Source: Promethearchaeia archaeon (GTDB lineage: Archaea; Asgardarchaeota; Lokiarchaeia; Sigyniarchaeales; SOKP01). Taken from it: a stretch of 32,000 bases of DNA. Made by a program: the position numbers and the translations under genes. Shown in pieces: positions 2,673-24,609 of the stretch; position 1 is the first letter of the stretch, and each line of letters begins with the position of its first letter. The stretch is taken from contig JAWOFX010000092.1 of assembly GCA_046497275.1 (NCBI GenBank), positions 5,682-37,681 of the forward strand, in the 5' to 3' direction. Below the pieces are notes generated by a model that saw only the letters and a program-made list of their open reading frames with translations, did no database searches and was not told where the DNA came from.

Positions 2673-4154
2673 ATGACTACTATAAAAGATAACCAACGCT
2701 ATAATGGCTTAAGTAAGGAAGATGTATACAAAAAATTGATCCAAATATTTGGAGACTCAAATGTAAGCAAACGAGCTGTTGATTTATATCCTTATTCCTA
2801 TGATATGACAGAGTGCGAAGCTCATATGCCCGATTATGTGGTAATTCCAGAAAATTCTGAACAAATTATTGAATTAGTGAAGTTTTGTAATAAAAATATT
2901 ATTCCAATCGTACCCTATATCACTGGAAATAATGTAGGAGGGCTGACAATTCCTCAATATGGAGGAATTATATTAGATTTTAGTAAGAAAATGAATAAAA
3001 TCCTTCATATCAATGAGGATATGATGTATGCATTATTAGAACCAGGAGTCACTTTTGGTCAATTAAAAAAACACTTGGATGAAAAGTATCCTCACCTAAG
3101 ATATAGCTATCCTTATGCGCCACCTTATGCAGGTGTGGTAGGTAATGCAATTTTGAGCGGTATGAATAACTTGTCTTGTAAAATCGGTTCTATGGGTGAC
3201 TCTATTAATGGTTTAGAAGTTATAACTGCCGATGGAGAGGTTGCTAGAATAGGATCATGTTTTTATGGTGAAAAGGATGCAGATAAGGATAGCTGGTGGG
3301 CCAGATATCCAATGCCAGATTTAATGGGTACATTTGTAAATTGGCAAGGTATGACTGGATTAGTAACTAAATGTGCAGTTCAGCTTTGGTCAAATCCTCC
3401 ATACAAGAAAACTTTTCTCGTTTTAGTCAAGGGTTTAACAGATATTGCTCCAGTAATAAGAGAAATAGGAAAAACAGATGTGGTTGATGACGTTTCAGCG
3501 GTTAGTACAGAAGTGGTAAAAATGACCGTAGAGATTCCTGATCCCGAGAAATATCCGGGAGAACCTGATTTTGTTGCTCTTTTTCCGATATCTGGAAAAA
3601 CAAAAAAATTATTAGAAGCTAAAAATGAAATTGTGCTAAATAAAATAAACGAATTGAAGAACCAAGGGAAAAATATAATTGTAGCGGATGTAGATGAGTT
3701 CGCCAAAATTTTCAATTTACGTGTACGATGTCATTTAGATTTACCCGCAGTTCTATTATCTTTAGTTGAATATTCAGGTTTAACTTGGTTCGGCTCTTAT
3801 GCTCCAACACATAAGTTAGAAGAATTAATCCAAAAAATTGATGAAATTTTCCATGAATATGATGTACCATCATTTATCTATATGAAAATCATGAAATCAG
3901 GTCATTATGGCATTTTCAGACCTATTATACGCTATAATAAATATAAAGATGGCGAAGAAGAGAAAATCCATCAATTACTTAACGATATTACTGATTTTTG
4001 TCTAAGTAGGGGATGTATACCTTATAAAACACCCTCTTGGATGACGGAAAAAATGCGAAAGAAAATAAATCCAGGCTGGTTGAAATTATTTGAAAAAATA
4101 AAAAATTGTATGGATCCTAATAATATATTCAATCCAGGAAGGTGGAACACGTAA
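2673..4154 (+). CDS. FAD-linked oxidoreductase, VAO/PCMH superfamily (GlcD-like), substrate unknown
   Basis: PDYVVIPEN.EQI, GNNVGG, ILDFSKKMNKIL, EPGVTFGQL, GLEVITADGE, QGMTGLVTK and terminal MDPNNIFNPG. Confidence 0.9.
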   Translation: MTTIKDNQRYNGLSKEDVYKKLIQIFGDSNVSKRAVDLYPYSYDMTECEAHMPDYVVIPENSEQIIELVKFCNKNIIPIVPYITGNNVGGLTIPQYGGIILDFSKKMNKILHINEDMMYALLEPGVTFGQLKKHLDEKYPHLRYSYPYAPPYAGVVGNAILSGMNNLSCKIGSMGDSINGLEVITADGEVARIGSCFYGEKDADKDSWWARYPMPDLMGTFVNWQGMTGLVTKCAVQLWSNPPYKKTFLVLVKGLTDIAPVIREIGKTDVVDDVSAVSTEVVKMTVEIPDPEKYPGEPDFVALFPISGKTKKLLEAKNEIVLNKINELKNQGKNIIVADVDEFAKIFNLRVRCHLDLPAVLLSLVEYSGLTWFGSYAPTHKLEELIQKIDEIFHEYDVPSFIYMKIMKSGHYGIFRPIIRYNKYKDGEEEKIHQLLNDITDFCLSRGCIPYKTPSWMTEKMRKKINPGWLKLFEKIKNCMDPNNIFNPGRWNT

Positions 4155-5345
4155 ATGACTGAAATAAAAATTCCAGATAATATTATGGGAAAAGAATTTT
4201 TAAAACTTTCTTTTGACCATTGCATTAAATGTAGCACTTGTAAATATTCGTTTAAGGGTTTTACAGATTCATGTCCCTCGGGAAAATCATTCTTTTTTGA
4301 ATCTTTTTGGGCATCTGGAAAAATACGAACAACACGGGGCTTATTATTAGGTGAATTAGAATGGAATGAAGATCTAAAAGATGCGATTTTTGCTTGCCCA
4401 ACGTGCGGAGCATGTATGGATGCGTGCCAAGCACCTCACGCGGATTATATTGTTGATATTATAGAAACACTTAGAGAATTAGCAGTGAAGAATATTGGAC
4501 CTGCCCAAAACCAAGAAAAATTAGTTGAGAGAGCAACTAATCCAAAAATGTGGAATCCTTATGGTGAACCTAATTCCAATAACGAAGCGTTAAAGAAAAA
4601 ATATAATTTACCGGATAAGGCAGAATGGGTATATTATATTGGATGTACTTCTAATTATAGACAAAAAACATTAAGAGACTCAACTCTTAGGTTCTTAAAA
4701 AAAGCAGGAATAGATTTTACTTTGATTGATGAACATTGTTGTACAAGCCCTATGATTAGAACAGGTCAAATTGAAAATAGTAAAGAATTTATGCGATATA
4801 ACGTGGAAAAAATTGAAGAGGCTGGAGCAAATAAAGTCGTAACATCTTGTGCGGGGTGTTATAGAACTTTAAAAAAAGATTTTGAAAAATTTGGAATAGA
4901 TTATGATTTTCAAGTTTACCATACGGTTGAATTATTAAAAGAACTTATTGATTCTGGAAAAATTAAAATCAAGTCTAAATATAACAAGAAACTTACTTAT
5001 CATGACCCATGTCATCTGGGAAGACATATGGGAATTTACGAAATTCCTAGGGAAGTATATAAGAAAATCCCTGGTATTGAATTTCTTGAAATGGAAAGAA
5101 ATCGAAATCATTCTTGGTGTTGTGGGGCGGGAGGAGGAGTAAAAATTGGATATCCTGATTGGGCAATAGATATTTCAAAAGAAAGGTTAGAGGAAGCAAA
5201 AGAAACAGGAGCAGAAGTTTTATCCTCGACATGTCCCTTCTGCAAGACTAATTTGAGTGATGCTAACGAAAAATATGGCTTTAATCTTCAGGTCTTAGAT
5301 CTGGTGGAGATATTAGATTCACTCGAGATAGAAATAATAAAATAA
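4155..5345 (+). CDS. HdrD/GlpC/GlcF-like Fe-S oxidoreductase (two ferredoxin motifs + two CCG domains)
   Basis: CIKCSTC..CP, CPTCGACMDAC, YYIGC, HCCTSP, SCAGC, YHDPCHLGR, WCCGAGGG and CPFC. The ATG directly abuts the upstream TAA. Confidence 0.92.
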   Translation: MTEIKIPDNIMGKEFLKLSFDHCIKCSTCKYSFKGFTDSCPSGKSFFFESFWASGKIRTTRGLLLGELEWNEDLKDAIFACPTCGACMDACQAPHADYIVDIIETLRELAVKNIGPAQNQEKLVERATNPKMWNPYGEPNSNNEALKKKYNLPDKAEWVYYIGCTSNYRQKTLRDSTLRFLKKAGIDFTLIDEHCCTSPMIRTGQIENSKEFMRYNVEKIEEAGANKVVTSCAGCYRTLKKDFEKFGIDYDFQVYHTVELLKELIDSGKIKIKSKYNKKLTYHDPCHLGRHMGIYEIPREVYKKIPGIEFLEMERNRNHSWCCGAGGGVKIGYPDWAIDISKERLEEAKETGAEVLSSTCPFCKTNLSDANEKYGFNLQVLDLVEILDSLEIEIIK

Positions 5346-5347
5346 TT

Positions 5348-6538
5348 TTAATCTTTATTTTCATATTGCTCTTTGGCAATTAAATATTCAATTTTTTGTT
5401 CTAATTCCTCAAGCGTGAGTTCTTCAACTTTATCTTCATACCCCAATGCTTTTAATTTTTTTATTTTTTTTGCTCGTTCCTTATCTGCTTTTTTTTGTTT
5501 AAACTCTAAGAAACTTAAATGGTCTGTTTTAGCTCTCTGTTTTTTAATCTCATCTTCCGGAACTTTATTAAGTAATTCCTTCACATCGCTTATTTTTTCA
5601 AATTTTTCCTTCATCTCTTTCATAATCTGTATTTGAACACTCATAGACTTTGGATCTTTCTCCCCTCGAAATACTTTAGTTGTATTTGTATTACTCAGAG
5701 AGTATTTATTATTAACACCAGGTGCCGTGTTTACATTTGGAGGTGGATTTAATTGGTTGGGTGCCCCATATGAACCAGTCGGAGCTTGAAGATATACAGG
5801 GTTTGCAGGAGCGGATGATTTATTTAGTGCAATTTGCTTAATAGTTGAATTGAGTTCTTTTACTTGTTGCTTTAATTCCTTCAATTCCTTAAACCCTTGA
5901 CGAATCATAAAAAAAGTTGTATCCCATGTCTTATCACCTTTTATTTCTAATAATTTCTGAAATTCTGATTCTGATATTTCAATTTTTTTTAAAGTTATTT
6001 CTCGATTATTAGACTTCAAGGAATTTTTAATAATTTTAGAACTCGATCCTTTCATTAATTTCTGATTGTTTTTTCTTCTAGGTTGAGATGATTTATTTAC
6101 ACTTGTCTTCTTTTTATAAGAATATCTTGTTTTAGTTTCATAGACTACCTCTTCTTCTAATATTTCAAAAAATTCTCCATCATCAAATAGAATTTCAGAA
6201 AGTTGGAAAGATTTATTGATGAATATCTCTTCTCTATCCCCCGAATAATAATAAATTGTAAGTCTAATTACACGAATTTTAAGATCTTCAATATTACTTA
6301 ATTTATCCAATTCAATTGAAAAAATTAGGATATTTGCTGAAAAGTGAAAGTTTTTAATGGATAATAGAAATGGTTCTTGAATAATATTTGGTGCTCTCTC
6401 ATTCACTTTTAGCAACTCAAACTTAAGATTCATACTTTTTATAGTGTCGGGAATTAATCTATCTATCTCATCTTGATCCTTTCTGAATTTAAAAAGAAGT
6501 TTATTTTGATCTTCCCAACATAATTGTAAGAGTTGCAT
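5348..6538 (-). CDS. Hypothetical multidomain protein: internal RHH/antitoxin-like module, coiled coil, Pro-rich linker, charged C-terminal helices
   Basis: 396-aa ORF. KKIEISESEFQKLLEIKGDKTWDTTFFMI resembles small archaeal RHH/VapB-like proteins, followed by heptads FKELKELKQQVKELNSTIKQI and a Pro-rich stretch. Confidence 0.75.
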   Translation of the reverse strand: MQLLQLCWEDQNKLLFKFRKDQDEIDRLIPDTIKSMNLKFELLKVNERAPNIIQEPFLLSIKNFHFSANILIFSIELDKLSNIEDLKIRVIRLTIYYYSGDREEIFINKSFQLSEILFDDGEFFEILEEEVVYETKTRYSYKKKTSVNKSSQPRRKNNQKLMKGSSSKIIKNSLKSNNREITLKKIEISESEFQKLLEIKGDKTWDTTFFMIRQGFKELKELKQQVKELNSTIKQIALNKSSAPANPVYLQAPTGSYGAPNQLNPPPNVNTAPGVNNKYSLSNTNTTKVFRGEKDPKSMSVQIQIMKEMKEKFEKISDVKELLNKVPEDEIKKQRAKTDHLSFLEFKQKKADKERAKKIKKLKALGYEDKVEELTLEELEQKIEYLIAKEQYENKD

Positions 6539-6550
6539 ATCTCATTTAAC

Positions 6551-6608
6551 ATCCGATTTTTGTCGGATCCTTTCGAATGGAATATTCCTTTAGTTATCTT
6601 AGAGATAA
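6551..6608. promoter_or_regulatory. Cluster of three short inverted repeats upstream of the 396-aa gene
   Basis: ATCCGA-N6-TCGGAT (6551-6568), GGAATATTCC (6579-6588) and TTATCT-N3-AGATAA (6594-6608). The repeats are directly visible; their function is unknown. Confidence 0.3.
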
Positions 6609-6720
6609 GGAAAATTTAAATGAAGATGGTCTCTAAATTTATTATAAAATAAATCTTGAAAAAATAAGAAAGAATTGAGAATTAAATAATTGCAATAAAA
6701 AAAAGATTTTAAGATATAAT

Positions 6721-7728
6721 CTATGGAATAGCGGTAGAGTCCCACGGAATTGGTATGCTTAGGGTCACGTTGATTGAAATCCCTCCAAATTCAGTATCAA
6801 ATATTAAATTATAACTAAGATTTGCATTCGTGGTGGCCAAACCTTCTATATATGACGTATCCATGACAGCTGTAAGATTTTGATTAAAAACACCGTCAAA
6901 AGCCCCGATTGAAGTATAGTGATTAATCGCAGATTCTCCAATTTTAGTATCAGGAGGAAGGGCACTTCCATTATCACTTGAAGATACCCAAATTTCAGAT
7001 TTAAGATTTAGATTGGTAAGAGGATAGATCCCACCATTTGAAATATCATAAGTTAAAGTAAAATTTAATTCATCATCACCATAGTTCCCCGGGGGGGCCG
7101 TACCACCATCATCATAATCATAATCATACGAAACTAAATTTGGTCTTAACATTACTCCGCTGCCTATGAGACTGAGTATCCAACCTACTAATATAAGACT
7201 CAAAATAACACCTACTACTTTAAATAGGAGGCTTGGTCTCGCTCTTCTTTTATATTCTGTAGAATCTTTTGTTACTCCACGTAATTCAAACGCTTCAAAG
7301 AGATATTGGAGACTTCTTACTCCCGCTGATAATAATAATAACCAAGCGATAAATTGTAAGCCTAATGAAACGCTGAGTTGTTGTGTTGCAATAGAAAAGT
7401 TTCCTAAATCTTTATTTGGATTAAAACCACCAAAGATATAAAAAAGATAAACTCCAGAAAATACAGTTATTATGAACATAATAACTCTATTCTTTGCTGA
7501 ATCTTTTGGATAAGCTGCTTTCAAAACTGCCAGAAATACACCCACCAAACCAAATATTATTATACCAGTAATAAAAGCTTGACTAACTGTAAATATACCA
7601 TAAAAATCAAGTCCTAATAGAATACCAAGCGGAATTGCAATATAGAGGATAGCATAAATGATTCCATTGAGGATCATCTTACCTATTTGAATTTCCATTT
7701 TAGATTCAAACTCATATTTATTATTCAA
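6721..7728 (-). CDS. Membrane protein with about 5 TM helices and a C-terminal extracellular beta-sandwich (LEA_2/Ig-like) domain
   Basis: Five hydrophobic segments, then a beta-rich S/T/N/D-rich domain with five N-glycosylation sequons. Start is TTG 7728 or ATG 7698. Confidence 0.8.
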   Translation of the reverse strand: MNNKYEFESKMEIQIGKMILNGIIYAILYIAIPLGILLGLDFYGIFTVSQAFITGIIIFGLVGVFLAVLKAAYPKDSAKNRVIMFIITVFSGVYLFYIFGGFNPNKDLGNFSIATQQLSVSLGLQFIAWLLLLSAGVRSLQYLFEAFELRGVTKDSTEYKRRARPSLLFKVVGVILSLILVGWILSLIGSGVMLRPNLVSYDYDYDDGGTAPPGNYGDDELNFTLTYDISNGGIYPLTNLNLKSEIWVSSSDNGSALPPDTKIGESAINHYTSIGAFDGVFNQNLTAVMDTSYIEGLATTNANLSYNLIFDTEFGGISINVTLSIPIPWDSTAIP

Positions 7729-8066
7729 ATTTATATTATTGATACATTAAACCATATTCAGAGTAATAAATATGCGCATTTTATATCAAAAACAAATAGT
7801 AAATTCTAATAATAAGAAACATCAAATTATTATGATTTTTATTTAAAGTATAAAACTTTAAAATTTTTTATTTCCGTTCGTATAGAAAATACCATTTTTT
7901 AATGCTTTTACTTCTATACTGTTTAGATTTTATTTTTGATCGTAGGAATAAATATTAATTTCGTGTTCTTGATTATTTTTGGATTTATTTATAGCATTAA
8001 CAAACCATAAAGGCAAGTTATTTAAAATTACATCTTTTAATTTTCATTAGCAAATAAAGTAAAGAT

Positions 8067-8471
8067 GTGAGATTCATCAAACAAAAAACACATAATAAAA
8101 TAAATAATAATTTATGCGGTACCCCAATAGAATTAAAAGAGGGTTATAGTAAATTAAAACTGACTCCCAATAAAAAAATGGTTTTAGATGAGTCAAATTT
8201 AATACATGGAGGTTTCACATTTAGTCTTGCTGATTATGCTGCAATGTTGGCTGTTAACCACTCTAATGTTGTTTTAACAGAAGCAAATGTTCGGTTTATA
8301 AAACCAGTAATTTTGGGGGATATACTTATTGCAGAAGCTCATATTATGCAGAAAGAGGGAAAAAAAATTATAGTTGAAGTAAATATAAATAAGAATGGCA
8401 TTAATGTTTTTGAAGGTGAATTTAAATGTTATATTCCAGAGATTCACATACTCGGAGGGGAGATTATATGA
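8067..8471 (+). CDS. PaaI-type hot-dog thioesterase
   Basis: LIHGGFTFSLADYAAMLAVN and NVRFIKPV..GD.L.AEA motifs. Confidence 0.9.
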   Translation: MRFIKQKTHNKINNNLCGTPIELKEGYSKLKLTPNKKMVLDESNLIHGGFTFSLADYAAMLAVNHSNVVLTEANVRFIKPVILGDILIAEAHIMQKEGKKIIVEVNINKNGINVFEGEFKCYIPEIHILGGEII

Positions 8472-10204
8472 ATGGTGGTGAGCTAATTGGTCAAATTCTT
8501 AAAAAAAAAAGAGTTGATTTTATATTCACATTATGTGGTGGGCATATAGCACCAATTTTAGTTGGAGCCAAAAAACAAGGATTAAGAGTTATTGATGTGC
8601 GACATGAGCCTACAGCGGTTTTTGCAGCAGATGCAGTTTCACGACTTACGGGTATACCAGGTGTTGCAGTTGTTACAGCAGGTCCAGGAGTGACTAACTC
8701 GGTTACTGCTGTAAAGAATGCTCAAATGGCACAATCTCCACTAATTTTATTAGGAGGTGCAGCAGCAACAGTTTTACAAGGGAGGGGGGCCCTTCAAGAT
8801 ATTGAACAACTTGATTTATATAAATCAATTGTAAAATGGGAAACCTCGATAGAGCAGAATTGCGATATTGAACCGATTTTGAATGAAGCTTTTGAAGTTT
8901 CAATGTCGGGAATTCCAGGTCCGGTTTTTATAGAATGTCCAATCGACGTATTATATGAAGAAGAACTTGTTAGAGAATGGTATGGAAAACGTTCGAAATC
9001 TCAAATCAACTCTTTAAAACAGAAAGTGGTTAATTGGTACCTTCAGAGACATGTAGATAAGCTTTTTGCATGTTCAATTGATGATGTAAAAAATAAAGAA
9101 AATGAGGATATTGTACCATTTTCTGTCGATCAAGAACAATTACAGAAAGTTGCTTCTCAAATTAACAATTCAAAAAAACCCGTTTTGATATTAGGAAGTC
9201 AAGCCACAAAACGAGTTGAATTAGTTTATGAACTTGCAGAGGGATTGAAAAATTTTGGGGTACCTGTTTTTTTAGCAAGCATGTCAAGAGGGCTACTTGG
9301 AAGGGATCATCCTTCATATTTTCGTCATGGACGTTCAAAGGCGCTTAAAGAAGCAGATTTAATAATAATATGTGGAATGCCTTGTGATTTTAGATTAAAT
9401 TATGGAAGAGCACTTAATAAAGGAGCTTTCCATATAGCAATCAATAGAAGTAAAGATGATTTGACTAATAATAAAAAACCAGATATGGCAATTCAAGCCG
9501 ATCCCGCAACATTTTTAGTAGAACTTTCTAAATCATTCTCATTTGAAAGAGAAAAATGGTTTCAATGGTATGAGACTTTGAAAGAATGGGAAATGGGTGG
9601 TAAAGCCAAAATTGAAAGATTTGCTCATGTTGATACGGATTTTTTAAATCCATTAGCTTTTTTGAAGGAGATTTACAACTATATAGAGGATAATGTGATT
9701 ATAATAGGAGATGGTGGTGACTTCATTGCAACAACATCCTATATTATTAAACCACCAAAACCTTTATCTTGGTTGGATCCTGGTCCTTATGGCACATTAG
9801 GAGTTGGTGCTGGATTTGCATTAGCAGCTAAATTAGTGCATCCAGAATCAGAAGTATGGCTTTTTTGGGGTGATGGTGCAGCTGGGTATAGCATTGCGGA
9901 AATTGATACATTTGTTAGACATAGCTTGCCAATAATTTCAGTGATTGGAAATGATGCTGGCTGGACTCAGATTGAAAGAGATCAAGTAGAATATTTAGAC
10001 GATTCGGTTGGAACGAACTTGAAATTCACAGATTATCATATAGTAGCAGAGGGATATGGAGGAGAAGGATTACTATTAAAAAATAAGGCGAATATTTCCC
10101 GTGTGGTCAACCAAGCAAAATTATTAGCCAAAAATGGTTCTCCCGTACTTATCAATGCTCTTATGGGTAAGACAGATTTTCGAAAAGGCTCAATCTCAAT
10201 GTAG
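8468..10204 (+). CDS. ILVBL: ThDP-dependent enzyme of the ILVBL / 2-hydroxyacyl-CoA lyase 2 subfamily (acetolactate-synthase-like)
   Basis: [48 protein letters not shown], ThDP motif GDG...ND and C-terminal [10 protein letters not shown]. Start set at ATG 8468 (ATGA overlap with the thioesterase stop; GGAGG at 8454-8458). Confidence 0.88.
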
Positions 10205-10231: not shown

Positions 10232-11140
10232 TTACTTTATATTTAAATTAAAAAAATTTATGGCATTTTGCGTAGTTTTTTCACTGACCAATTCTTGAGA
10301 AACACCATGGCTGTATGCGATAGCTGCTATAGAATATCGAGCATTAGCAGGAACATTAAATGGGCCTCGCTTATATGGATGTTGATAATAACTATCTGTT
10401 TCTGTTACTAGTGAATCTAAAGGGGAGACTTTAGTTGCATTTCTCCAATTTTTAAATCCATAAGAAGAACTAGGAACAGATAAAGTAAATCCCTTCTCAG
10501 GTAAGATTTTTCCATATTCTTTCGGGCCTGAAAAACAATGAAACATTACTTTTTTAAAATTAATTTTATAACCACTTAAAATTTTGAGTATTTCCTTAGT
10601 GGCTCCATCAGGTTGATTAAATCTATGGTTGGGGTGTTTTTTATCATATTCATGTTTAGCAGGATTTCGAACATGTAAGATATAGGGTTTATTAAATTCT
10701 TTTGTGATTTGGAATATTTTTTCTAATTCTTCAACTTGTTTATTTCTTTTTTCTAAGGTTTTCGCGTGATGAAAATCAAGCCCTATTTCACCTATTCCCA
10801 AATATTTTTCTTGATTATCTCGTATATAATTTATCCACTGCTTCCATATTTCATCATATTTATTCTTAGGTGTATAGGTCACGGTTTGTGGAGCCCATCC
10901 AGATGTGAAACCATAGTTTTCATCAACATTTTCCTTAAATTTTAAGGTCATTTTAAGTGTTTCCAAATCAATGGAGCTTGTAATTAAATAAAGTCCTCCT
11001 TTATCAAAATAATCTGAGAGTTGTTCTTTATCTGGTGGCAAACGATCGTTTTTTTTAGGGCGGGGAAAAGGTAGGTGGCAATGTACATCAATAAATTTTA
11101 AATCCTTTTTCGGCTCTGGAATATTGTCACTCTTAGACAT
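10232..11140 (-). CDS. tatD: TatD-family metal-dependent hydrolase/nuclease
   Basis: DVHCHL, GIGEIGLDF, LHVR, FHCFSG and ETDS; all metal ligands are present. Confidence 0.92.
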   Translation of the reverse strand: MSKSDNIPEPKKDLKFIDVHCHLPFPRPKKNDRLPPDKEQLSDYFDKGGLYLITSSIDLETLKMTLKFKENVDENYGFTSGWAPQTVTYTPKNKYDEIWKQWINYIRDNQEKYLGIGEIGLDFHHAKTLEKRNKQVEELEKIFQITKEFNKPYILHVRNPAKHEYDKKHPNHRFNQPDGATKEILKILSGYKINFKKVMFHCFSGPKEYGKILPEKGFTLSVPSSSYGFKNWRNATKVSPLDSLVTETDSYYQHPYKRGPFNVPANARYSIAAIAYSHGVSQELVSEKTTQNAINFFNLNIK

Positions 11141-21695: not shown

Positions 21696-23705
21696 TTAAG
21701 CACGGTTTCCTACTCTATACCCTCTTGCGATTGCTTCAAGAGCGGTTTCAGGTTTTCTTGCGGAACCAATTTTTTCTACTTCAATACCTAATTTTTTAAT
21801 TGGTTTATAAAGTGCGTCATTTGATTTAACTCCAGTGGCATAATAGACGTGGTCTACATTATCTATAATTTTCTCTACACCTTCAGGATCTTCATACTTC
21901 ACATATTCATCTCCAATTTCCAAAACATTTACATTTGCTAATTTATCAACACCAAGTTTATCTACTTTATCTAATAGAACCCATTTGGTCGTCTTCCCTA
22001 AGATGGAACCAAATTTAGGTAATCTTTCCAAGACTGTGACTTTATTCTTGCCTTTATAGAGCATATCGAGTGCTACTTTAGGATCTAAAGCATCATAAAA
22101 GGTTAAGAATTTAAATTGTTCGAGGGATAATGAACCATATTCCGCAAGATAAATCGCTAATTCGATCCCCGTTGCACCTCCACCAATTATCACATTATTT
22201 TTTCCAACTGGAGCATCTTTAGTAAATACATCATTAGCCCAGAATACGTGAGGTTTATCAATTCCCGGTATCTTAGGTTTTATAGGCAATGAACCTGTAG
22301 CAAGAAATACCACATCAGGATCGAATTCTTTTACCATGTCTAATGTCACTTCCGTGTTCAAAACTGTCTTTATATCTAAACTTTGAATCCAATAAGTATA
22401 ATCTTCAATCATGCGTTTGAATTCATTTCTTCCAGGAGGGATCCAGATCGTATTAATGAGTCCACCGATTTTATCGTCTTTTTCAAAAATTGTTACATCA
22501 TGTCCTCTTTTTGCTGCAATCCGAGCAGACTCCAAACCTCCAGGACCAGCGCCTATAACCATGATTTTTTTCTTCTCTTCTAACGGATTTAATTCTCGTC
22601 TACTCTCATCAGCTGCTCTTGCATTTCTTAAACAAGTTATAGGTTTTAATGCAAAAACATTATCGAAGCATCCTTGATTACATGCCACACAGTGTATTAT
22701 AGAATGAAGAGCATTGTTTTTTGCCTTTTGGGGCAAATAAGGATCAGCAATTAAAGGTCTTCCCATACATATTGCATCAGCTTTACCCGCCATCAAAATT
22801 TCCTCAGCCAAGACTGGATCATTTATTCTATTAGATGAGAAAATGGGGATATTCACACGATTTTTTATTATTTCCGCTAAGTATGAATAAGCTCCCTCTG
22901 GAACGTCCATAGTTAGTTGAGGAACTTTCGTTTCATGCCATCCTCCCGTCACATTATAATAGTCCAAATATTCAGATAATTCTTCGGCCACTACTGCTTT
23001 TTCTTTATATGTATTACTTTCGGGAACAAAATCATCACCTGAAATCCTATAACCCACGACAAAATCATCAACGGTCGTTCTTATAAGGTCTAAAGTCTCT
23101 TTTGGAAATCTTAAACGATCCTCTAGATCTCCCCCATATTCATCAGTTCGCTTATTCGTCTTAGGAGAAATGAATTGATCCATCAGGTATCCTGCATTAG
23201 CACAAACCTCAACCGCATCAAATCCCGCTTTTTTTGCTCTTAAGGCGGCATCCGCGAACGCTTTTTGCTCTCGCTCTATATCTTCATCTGTCATTTTACG
23301 AGGAGTGGTGTTGCTAAAATTACTATACACTTCCGATGGCGCGATTGGTTGCTTCCCTATTATTTGCGGAAAAGCATAGGCTCCACCGTGATAAAGTTGA
23401 CAGCAAACTTTCACATCATCTCTTGTATTATGGACTGCGTCTGTAAATTCTCGTAATCCTGGGATAAATTTATCATCGTCAACCGCAATCATAGATGGTA
23501 ATCCCTTGCCATAAATATCTACATAACATCCTCCGATAATCAGCATCCCCGCACCTCCTTTAGCTCGCTCAACGTAAAAATCGATTAACCTTTGAGTCAT
23601 TGCACCTTGATCCGCAAGTCCAAGATGCATAGCAGGCATTATTATCCTGTTTGATACTTCTAAATTCTTAATGCTTAATGGAGTGAAAAGTTTAAAGAAT
23701 TTCAT
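21696..23705 (-). CDS. fadH: 2,4-dienoyl-CoA reductase FadH-like (OYE TIM barrel + 4Fe-4S + FAD/NADPH domains)
   Basis: NRIIMPAMH, GYLMDQF (Tyr), GWHE (His), NRINDP, CVACNQGC..TC, GAGPGG and IIGGGATG. Confidence 0.85.
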   Translation of the reverse strand: MKFFKLFTPLSIKNLEVSNRIIMPAMHLGLADQGAMTQRLIDFYVERAKGGAGMLIIGGCYVDIYGKGLPSMIAVDDDKFIPGLREFTDAVHNTRDDVKVCCQLYHGGAYAFPQIIGKQPIAPSEVYSNFSNTTPRKMTDEDIEREQKAFADAALRAKKAGFDAVEVCANAGYLMDQFISPKTNKRTDEYGGDLEDRLRFPKETLDLIRTTVDDFVVGYRISGDDFVPESNTYKEKAVVAEELSEYLDYYNVTGGWHETKVPQLTMDVPEGAYSYLAEIIKNRVNIPIFSSNRINDPVLAEEILMAGKADAICMGRPLIADPYLPQKAKNNALHSIIHCVACNQGCFDNVFALKPITCLRNARAADESRRELNPLEEKKKIMVIGAGPGGLESARIAAKRGHDVTIFEKDDKIGGLINTIWIPPGRNEFKRMIEDYTYWIQSLDIKTVLNTEVTLDMVKEFDPDVVFLATGSLPIKPKIPGIDKPHVFWANDVFTKDAPVGKNNVIIGGGATGIELAIYLAEYGSLSLEQFKFLTFYDALDPKVALDMLYKGKNKVTVLERLPKFGSILGKTTKWVLLDKVDKLGVDKLANVNVLEIGDEYVKYEDPEGVEKIIDNVDHVYYATGVKSNDALYKPIKKLGIEVEKIGSARKPETALEAIARGYRVGNRA

Positions 23706-23820
23706 ATCTTTTTCCTCTATTTATATTTTTATATTAATTTAATTTTAATTTATATTTTAAAATATATAATTGTATAATTTTGAAAACATGAATTTTCAAA
23801 TTAGAAAATTTTAGAATTTT

Positions 23821-24609
23821 TTAACGAAAATAAGAGTCTGTGCCTTTGTCTTTTTGATATTCTTTCATAAAATGATCAGCTTGCTCTTTAAATTTGTCAA
23901 GCATGTCTTCCATCTCCTCTATTTTTTTATCGAGCTCGGAATAATCCATTTCAATCGCAAAATAATCCTTTAACACAGTGACCAAAGATTTTGAAGCTTT
24001 TGGGTCGAGATTAATCATTCTTAGTGGCAAAGTTTCTGCTAATAAGCAAATTCCGGGAGCAAAATTATTTTTACCTGCCCATGCAGGCAATATACCATTA
24101 GCTCCAGCAATAACTCCACTCTCCATCACTTCCGTGTTTTCTAATTCTAAAAAACTTTCTGTAATCTTTTTATCTGTCCCAGAAACATAGACTGTAGGCT
24201 CTTCTTTATCCATGGACTTATCTGAAACCATAGCACCTGCGCTTAAATACATTCTAATATTTCCTTTTGTTAATTTGTCCATCTCCTCACAAAATTGTTT
24301 GGAAAATTCAAATACACCTTCTGGGGATTGGGGTTGATAATCACCTGTTAAAACAAAAATATCTCCGTTTTCACGACCTTTATAAAACAATTTTGCTGTT
24401 GGAATATCGAGAGCTCCCTCTTCTACTGAACTTTTGGGAGGAAAGTCAAAATACTGGATATCAAATACTAATTCCGCATTAATAGCATCTTTAATCGAAC
24501 TAATTGCTAATTTTCCCACTAATGCAATACCCGGCCAACCGATTAATACCGTGGGATTGTTTAATTTCTCTGGATCAAGTTCAAGTTTCTTCTCGAAATT
24601 TATATACAT
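23821..24609 (-). CDS. Proteasome assembly chaperone (PAC2) family protein
   Basis: LIGWPGIALVGKLA, GVIAGANGIL, GICLLAET and DPKAS..LV.VL, with a C-terminal coiled coil. Confidence 0.88.
   Translation of the reverse strand: MYINFEKKLELDPEKLNNPTVLIGWPGIALVGKLAISSIKDAINAELVFDIQYFDFPPKSSVEEGALDIPTAKLFYKGRENGDIFVLTGDYQPQSPEGVFEFSKQFCEEMDKLTKGNIRMYLSAGAMVSDKSMDKEEPTVYVSGTDKKITESFLELENTEVMESGVIAGANGILPAWAGKNNFAPGICLLAETLPLRMINLDPKASKSLVTVLKDYFAIEMDYSELDKKIEEMEDMLDKFKEQADHFMKEYQKDKGTDSYFR

Follow-up and report, generated by a model that had tools for sequence, protein, structure and literature searches.

A candidate 2-hydroxyacyl-CoA lyase of the ILVBL/HACL2 branch and its thioesterase partner in a Lokiarchaeial genome

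What does an enzyme that databases call acetolactate synthase do in an anaerobic archaeon, when its gene overlaps that of a predicted acyl-CoA thioesterase? The question is raised by two genes in a 32,000-nucleotide stretch of DNA (hereafter, the window; GC content ~29%) from a Lokiarchaeial (Asgard) genome of 3.85 Mb that is 98.9% complete. The first gene (8067-8471, + strand, GTG start) encodes a 134-aa protein of the hotdog fold and the second (8468-10204, + strand, ATG start) a 578-aa thiamine diphosphate (ThDP) enzyme in which all three ThDP domains are present. An earlier note on this DNA, made from its sequence, had likened the second protein to eukaryotic ILVBL/HACL2, the 2-hydroxyacyl-CoA lyase 2 of the endoplasmic reticulum (Kitamura et al. 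2017, PMC10398889), rather than to biosynthetic IlvB. Our analysis leads to the view that the two genes probably form a bicistronic, translationally coupled cassette for a soluble 2-hydroxyacyl-CoA lyase of the ILVBL/HACL2 branch and a CoA-ester thioesterase.

Family placement of the ThDP enzyme

Profile searches ranked the NCBIfam model PRK05858 first for the ThDP protein (401 bits), followed by the actinobacterial 2-hydroxyacyl-CoA lyase (HACL) model (292 bits) and by acetohydroxyacid synthase (AHAS; 232 bits), all of them under their cut-offs (587 bits for PRK05858; 538 bits for the AHAS model TIGR00118, which gave 229-232 bits). Models of oxalyl-CoA decarboxylase (OXC) came below the HACL models, with 185-207 bits against cut-offs of 557-739. 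The host genome encodes seven full-length members of the AHAS/POX superfamily of ThDP enzymes; none of these paralogues exceeds the AHAS cut-off, and the window protein is the weakest AHAS match among them. The absence of an ilvN/H small-subunit gene nearby, pointed out in the earlier note, extends to the genome as a whole, where the best match to TIGR00119 reached 20 bits (cut-off 56.9). Since profile searches of the whole genome recovered neither a protein above the AHAS cut-off nor an IlvN, branched-chain amino-acid synthesis in this host is either absent or carried out via a divergent enzyme. Among sequences in the PDB, the best matches were HACL and 2-hydroxyacyl-CoA synthase (HACS) entries (8vz*, 7pt1, 6xn8) at ~206 bits, compared with 155 bits for the best AHAS. 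Likewise, when an AlphaFold2 model of the protein (pLDDT 83, pTM 0.85) was queried with Foldseek, HACS, the actinobacterial enzyme AcHACL and OXC occupied all ranks to ~40, before any AHAS. As judged from its sequence, the ThDP enzyme does not belong to the biosynthetic acetolactate synthases.

A search of the ThDP protein against 1.84 billion cluster representatives returned nine prokaryotic proteins as the first matches (47-52% identity). The next-best representatives were proteins of 600-650 aa with N-terminal extensions of 30-55 residues (42-46% identity, 460-510 bits), which look-ups showed to be eukaryotic and which include a Trichinella 'acetolactate synthase-like protein / 2-hydroxyacyl-CoA lyase 2' as well as proteins from Nonionella, Mastigamoeba, and Ploeotia. 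An insert of ~40 aa (WYLxxHxxxLF) between the Pyr and middle domains, at window residues ~166-220, was common to Mastigamoeba, Trichinella and other eukaryotic rows, and was missing from the true IlvX/PRK05858 protein, from IlvX-like outgroups and from the AHAS-like paralogues of the host genome. The C-terminal tail, (D/E)FR(K/E)GSIS(M/V/L), reads DFRKGSISM in the window protein, GFRDGSISL in Trichinella and KFREGSISL in Nonionella, and is missing from true PRK05858/IlvX (P0204, 730 bits) and from the same host paralogues. The segment KNAQMAQSP was also common to the window protein and the eukaryotic ILVBL/HACL2 rows. All four motifs quoted in the earlier note were thus present and could be aligned to the Trichinella, Mastigamoeba and Nonionella proteins, although the WLDPG..GTLGVG segment is not specific to the clade and has no diagnostic value, since WLDPG..GTLG is also kept by IlvX-like outgroups. 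The likeness presumably extends to the human ILVBL motifs, the aligned rows being those of non-human eukaryotes. Human residue positions given below follow PMC13327070. At its other end, the window protein has no N-terminal membrane anchor and begins at the Pyr domain (MNGG), whereas the eukaryotic extensions are hydrophobic; by this comparison the anchor appears as a eukaryote-specific addition.

Phylogenetic trees pointed in the same direction. FastTree (174 rows) and an IQ-TREE quick tree under LG+C20 (73 rows) gave the same picture, in which the window protein falls in one clade with eukaryotic HACL2 (65 rows, SH-aLRT 99 in IQ-TREE; 100 in FastTree) and the IlvX-like outgroups stand apart. 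In the 174-row tree the AHAS-like paralogues of the host fall with these outgroups, outside the HACL2 clade. Taken together, profile scores, motifs, and trees uphold the assignment to the ILVBL/HACL2 type over biosynthetic IlvB. Branching with AHAS, the outcome that the earlier note had named as contrary to its proposal, was looked for in the trees and was not seen.

Active-site and CoA-site residues were mapped by alignment to ApbHACS plus published tables (PMC13327070 Table 1; PMC11271303). The catalytic glutamine is found at Q110 (ApbHACS Q117, AcHACL Q128, human HACL2 Q161), and the active-site residues H44 and T88 of AcHACL correspond to H26 and T76. The proton-relay site, occupied by glutamate in AcHACL (E493) and IlvX (E472), holds I502, an isoleucine as in human HACL2 (I554; PMC13327070). 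On the CoA side, R289 corresponds to the acyl-CoA-binding arginine R260 of ApbHACS, and R572-K573 to R545/K546, the lid residues that contact acyl-CoA (PMC11271303). H26, Q110 and R572 were invariant in all ILVBL-type rows having a residue at the position, and T76, R289, I502 and K573 were occasionally substituted.

The enzyme can therefore be set against three groups of known proteins. With eukaryotic ILVBL/HACL2 it shares the clade, 42-46% identity, the ~40-aa insert, the C-terminal tail, Gln110, and Ile502, but it differs in having no membrane anchor, in being operonic with a thioesterase, in its anaerobic host, and in not being a specific sister of the eukaryotic clade. The second group is made up of AcHACL (7pt1, an actinobacterial 2-hydroxyisobutyryl-CoA lyase), which shares H26, T76 and Q110, and the mycobacterial IlvX of PRK05858, the model with the best NCBIfam score; their proton-relay glutamate is replaced by Ile502 in the window protein, and the PRK05858 protein P0204 has neither the insert nor the FRKGSIS tail. 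Finally, bacterial HACL/HACS (RuHACL, 6xn8; ApbHACS, 8vza/8vzc) and OXC are the best structure matches and have the catalytic glutamine, R289 and R572/K573 in common with it, but identity in the fold alignments is 22-25%, the lid of the window protein is shorter and its insert is extra.

The thioesterase and the recurrence of the gene pair

The product of the first gene carries a 4HBT domain (PF03061, 6.7e-10, 39.6 bits against a cut-off of 20.6), passes TIGR00369 (37.7 bits, cut-off 36.6) and stays under the cut-off of the PaaI equivalog model (46 bits against 118.9). Its closest match among the proteins compared was Pyrococcus PH1136 (PDB 1ixl), aligned over the full length at 1e-35, and matches to Cj0977, HP0420, PaaI and the effector domain of FapR were weaker. 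For PH1136 itself we found no named or assayed function, its PDB label being hypothetical protein. The segment HGGFTFSLAD aligns with HGGQLFSLAD of E. coli PaaI, which contains the backbone glycine and the catalytic aspartate. These residues are reported as G53 and D61 (Song et al. 2006). The HGG...D motif is missing from the non-catalytic relatives Cj0977 and HP0420; because it is intact here, the first gene likely encodes a catalytically competent acyl-CoA thioesterase of the hotdog fold (4HBT/PaaI-type, PH1136-like). The full-length match to PH1136 and the HGG...LAD motif of E. coli PaaI thus tie it to known proteins, from which it differs in that its partner is a predicted ThDP lyase and not the phenylacetate pathway. 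The malonyl-CoA-sensing regulator FapR was also considered and rejected, as the protein scored 64.8 bits against a cut-off of 183 and matched the hotdog part alone (profile positions 81-183), with no helix-turn-helix.

Both open reading frames (ORFs) and their ATGA overlap, as described in the earlier note, were confirmed by direct reading of the sequence. Homology to PH1136 starts at residue 4 of the thioesterase, which supports its GTG start at 8067. The mechanical ORF list places the start of the ThDP gene at 8426; the true start is the ATG at 8468, because homologues all begin with M-(N/H)-GG there, the identical database protein has 578 aa, and GGAGGGGAG lies upstream. This Shine-Dalgarno-like run (8454-8462, + strand), read from the sequence, lies within the 3' part of the thioesterase gene, with 5 nt between it and the start codon of the ThDP gene, and, as a presumed ribosome-binding site, supports both the start at 8468 and translational coupling. 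Start and stop codons overlap as ATGA at 8468-8471 on the + strand (ATG 8468-8470, TGA 8469-8471). Upstream of the thioesterase gene lies an AT-rich spacer of 338 bp, in which TTTAAAAT (8021-8028) is a candidate archaeal TATA box, and downstream a tatD-family hydrolase gene (10232-11140, - strand) converges on the pair. The spacer and the convergent tatD indicate that the unit consists of two genes.

A scan of species-representative genomes confirmed at least 599 loci as relatives of the ThDP enzyme, spanning Thermodesulfobacteriota, Acidobacteriota, Chloroflexota, Bacteroidota, Myxococcota, Planctomycetota, and others. Gene context was examined by targeted tblastn in 80 of these loci plus the Asgard loci, ORF-based clustering being noisy in loci of high GC content. 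In 20 other loci the ThDP gene is immediately preceded by a gene for a PH1136-like thioesterase; these loci come from three Lokiarchaeia, a Spirochaetota bin, Acidobacteriota and Myxococcota. The bacterial pairs overlap by 4 nt (ATGA or GTGA) in 10 of 18 loci, and in the other eight the genes are separated by at most 11 nt or share 14 nt; this recurrence, with the rest near-adjacent, shows that the 4-nt overlap is not due to chance. The coupling to a thioesterase that the earlier note had described is therefore real and has been kept across phyla.

Acyl-CoA synthetase genes were found within 6 kb in ~10 loci from at least five phyla. Furthermore, P0128 (and also P0314 and P0315) is a fusion protein of 1137-1152 aa, in which an N-terminal AMP-binding acyl-CoA synthetase is joined to a C-terminal ILVBL/HACL2-like ThDP enzyme with 48% identity to the window protein. 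In the Rosetta-stone sense the fusion links the lyase to substrate activation, and together with the acyl-CoA synthetase neighbours it points to CoA-thioester substrates made from free acids.

Nine Acidobacteriota loci showed a cluster of their own, made up of delta-1-pyrroline-5-carboxylate (P5C) dehydrogenase, a YdiJ-like dehydrogenase, the thioesterase, and the ILVBL-like enzyme. The YdiJ-like protein (940 aa, FAD/4Fe-4S/CCG, D-2-hydroxyglutarate dehydrogenase-like) is encoded by a divergent gene and was seen in this one phylum only. The make-up of the cluster hints that the substrate in Acidobacteriota is related to glutamate or 2-hydroxyglutarate.

Candidate reactions of the gene pair

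Family placement, CoA-site residues, the conserved pair, and the acyl-CoA synthetase neighbours with their fusion together make a role as CoA-thioester lyase or synthase a well-supported inference. The reaction itself, its direction, the substrate and the target of the thioesterase are what we infer from these data. Specifically, the ThDP enzyme would bind a 2-hydroxyacyl-CoA and split its C1-C2 bond, giving formyl-CoA and an aldehyde one carbon shorter, and the thioesterase would free CoA by hydrolysing a CoA ester that belongs to this pathway, be it the product formyl-CoA or surplus substrate ester. PaaI is known to hydrolyse the substrate CoA ester of its pathway as a safety valve (PMC4498308), so the target here could be formyl-CoA, 2-hydroxyacyl-CoA or another ester; our literature search found no paper on a dedicated formyl-CoA thioesterase of the hotdog fold.

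In mammals, alpha-oxidation of 2-hydroxy fatty acids proceeds from acyl-CoA synthetase through HACL to aldehyde dehydrogenase (PMC10398889), and the alpha-oxidation-like module that the earlier note had proposed is a plausible reading, favoured by the conserved acyl-CoA-binding residues, by the acyl-CoA synthetase neighbours and by the fusion. O2-dependent hydroxylases that make 2-hydroxy fatty acids are unlikely in this anaerobe, and fermentation of amino acids or 2-oxo acids would be a more plausible source of 2-hydroxyacyl-CoAs in an anaerobic Lokiarchaeon than O2-dependent 2-hydroxylation. The host genome contains at least six strong genes of the 2-hydroxyacyl-CoA dehydratase family, one family-III CoA transferase gene, and two to three aldehyde dehydrogenase genes, which makes 2-hydroxyacyl-CoAs from such fermentation plausible substrates.

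Several observations weigh against a 2-hydroxyacyl-CoA lyase with a dedicated thioesterase. The second CoA-binding arginine of ApbHACS, R400, is replaced by S424, and its ADP-binding arginines R156 and R276 by I149 and P304, which sets the window protein apart from bacterial HACL/HACS and OXC; the HACS ADP arginines are also missing from AcHACL and IlvX. The closest bacterial relatives, from Desulfosalsimonadaceae/Desulfobacterium, have no thioesterase gene within the flanks examined. An aldehyde dehydrogenase neighbour was rejected as a sign of alpha-oxidation, since the one in Acidobacteriota is a P5C dehydrogenase (equivalog TIGR01236, 798 bits against a cut-off of 614) confined to one phylum. 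The literature that we searched contains no assay of any member of the prokaryotic clade and no characterization of prokaryotic HACL2-type enzymes, nor did we find a paper there that joins Asgard archaea with HACL. Lastly, mouse knockout and overexpression tie ILVBL to dimethylglyoxal derived from pyruvate, so that carboligase activity is possible in the family (PMC11237006).

The same chemistry could also run the other way, with the ThDP enzyme condensing formyl-CoA and an aldehyde into a 2-hydroxyacyl-CoA and the thioesterase hydrolysing this product and so pulling the reaction. Reactions of the HACL/HACS type can run in both directions, and homologues from bacteria act efficiently as synthases (PMC11271303; PMC13327070). 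Tight translational coupling would suit a thioesterase that hydrolyses the product and is made in a fixed ratio to the lyase, and the single family-III CoA transferase could make formyl-CoA from formate. However, in Lokiarchaeia the cassette has no linked gene for making formyl-CoA or aldehydes, acyl-CoA synthetases, both as neighbours and in the fusion, suit activation of acid substrates and hence the catabolic direction, and no natural pathway of this kind was found in the literature searched. We regard synthesis as an improbable physiological direction for this pair.

An enzyme that acts on 2-oxo acids independently of CoA, as a carboligase or decarboxylase of the acetolactate or acetoin type, with a thioesterase that is functionally unrelated or merely co-regulated, has a comparably small chance of being correct. 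It would agree with the name acetolactate synthase carried by both the best NCBIfam model and the database entry, with the dimethylglyoxal phenotype of mammalian ILVBL (PMC11237006) and with a host that has no canonical AHAS. On the other hand, the window protein is the lowest of the seven ThDP paralogues on the AHAS model and has no IlvN, the clade shows hardly any variation at R289 and the R572-K573 lid, the hotdog partner is conserved, and acyl-CoA synthetase neighbours and a fusion exist; in addition, PRK05858-type proteins are themselves regarded as putative HACLs (PMC13327070).

Least probable among these alternatives is another CoA thioester as substrate, through decarboxylation of oxalyl-CoA or through cleavage of 2-hydroxyacyl-CoAs that are branched or dicarboxylic (2-hydroxyglutaryl-CoA, for example), with the thioesterase as a PaaI-like safety valve for the substrate CoA ester: OXC and HICL are the sister subfamilies, the Acidobacteriota pair lies beside the YdiJ-like D-2-hydroxyglutarate dehydrogenase and P5C dehydrogenase, and PaaI acts on the substrate CoA ester of its pathway (PMC4498308), but OXC models score below HACL models, the ADP-site arginines of OXC/HACS are absent, and the Acidobacteriota context belongs to one phylum only and was not found in Lokiarchaeia.

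Lyase action on 2-hydroxyacyl-CoA, backed by the conserved thioesterase, is thus the reading that we prefer. As a more speculative and rather unlikely extension, the pair could constitute, in Lokiarchaeia and many bacteria, a natural anaerobic one-carbon module, either stripping formyl-CoA (and hence formate, a syntrophic electron carrier) from 2-hydroxyacyl-CoAs derived from amino acids, or running as the reverse elongation by formyl-CoA pulled by product hydrolysis.

History of the locus and meaning for the family

In the trees, the window protein and three other Lokiarchaeial copies are sister to sequences of sulfate reducers (Desulfosalsimonadaceae/Desulfobacterium; SH-aLRT 100), and this group is nested in a clade dominated by Desulfobacterales (SH-aLRT 99). 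Asgard copies of families f14 and f25 split off apart from these, close to the base, where 13 eukaryote-like rows form one clade (SH-aLRT 96) in a basal polytomy with the f14/f25 copies, Bacteroidota, and others. A single clade forced on all nine Asgard rows, a group named after the first tree had been seen, lowered the log-likelihood by 71 units and was rejected (p-AU 0.0025). The earlier note had held the locus to be relevant to the origin of eukaryotic ILVBL; this was not supported for the present copy, since the window copy lies inside the Desulfobacterales clade, the Asgard copies are not monophyletic, and the eukaryotes form a separate clade. Eukaryotic ILVBL may descend from a deep-branching Asgard copy (f14/f25) and not from bacteria, a history that the tree neither supports nor excludes. 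A special affinity between Asgard and eukaryotic proteins found no support when L005, one of the deep-branching Asgard copies, was used as the query: the best 120 matches listed were bacterial and Lokiarchaeial proteins only (48-53% identity).

One euglenid protein behaved differently between trees. Ploeotia sp. P0133 (EukProt), which has an N-terminal extension, pairs in FastTree with the metagenomic P0123 of prokaryote-like length, and in IQ-TREE each stands by itself in the basal polytomy, neither falling in the main eukaryotic clade. P0133 may represent contamination or a separate acquisition.

The gene is patchily distributed, being found in 10 of the 201 Asgard genomes sampled, including three of 40 others of the window's own family. 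The cassette adjoins tatD in the window genome (G000) and in G183 and G210, which represent two genera, and its divergence across the three (62-74%) resembles that of tatD (67-68%). In three genomes of the same genus the cassette is absent from this site, where tatD and the adjacent genes for membrane proteins are present. As tatD occurs in 33 of the 41 family genomes searched, this one counted (61-70% identity), it provides a stable anchor for a variable cassette site. Moreover, the four Lokiarchaeial thioesterases group in one clade, and their branching order within it repeats that of the ThDP tree. Recent horizontal transfer into this genome was accordingly ruled out by the tatD-adjacent site in two genera, the tatD-like divergence and the mirrored topologies, which imply an old transfer followed by losses. 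Most simply, an ancestor of this Lokiarchaeial family and Desulfobacterales-like bacteria would have exchanged the gene or the pair long ago, and vertical descent with repeated loss would have followed; nesting inside the Desulfobacterales clade suggests that the direction was from bacteria to archaea.

Beyond the cassette, two membrane proteins of 396 and 335 aa with no Pfam domains are encoded on the - strand (5348-7728), between it and a FAD-oxidase/CCG (GlcD/HdrD-like) operon (2673-5345). The gene for the 335-aa protein is absent in G212 and has two tandem matches in G215 (loci L102-L104), so that this interval varies within the genus. A functional link between the cassette and the FAD-oxidase/CCG operon was rejected on two grounds: the fused FAD-oxidase/Fer4/CCG gene in eight Acidobacteriota loci is YdiJ-like, with ~24% identity to that of the window, and operon and tatD remain neighbours in Lokiarchaeia with or without the cassette. 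GC content is 34% over the cassette (8001-10000) compared with 28-29% in both flanks, and it reaches 36% at 22001-24000, so the value at the cassette is not unusual in the window.

That an Asgard archaeon carries an ILVBL-like gene is not, in the case of this copy, evidence that eukaryotic ILVBL originated in archaea. We describe a known kind of enzyme with a conserved, previously undescribed partner, and not a new kind of system. Animal HACL2/ILVBL was recently assigned to alpha-oxidation, and its relatives in prokaryotes still carry the label 'acetolactate synthase', an annotation that is corrected here for a phylum-spanning prokaryotic clade with all HACL2 signatures and at least 599 loci. 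The soluble enzymes of this clade may be of interest for one-carbon biocatalysis. Its conserved coupled thioesterase, often with an acyl-CoA synthetase, provides a testable module of two or three enzymes for the metabolism of 2-hydroxyacyl-CoA and formyl-CoA in anaerobes.

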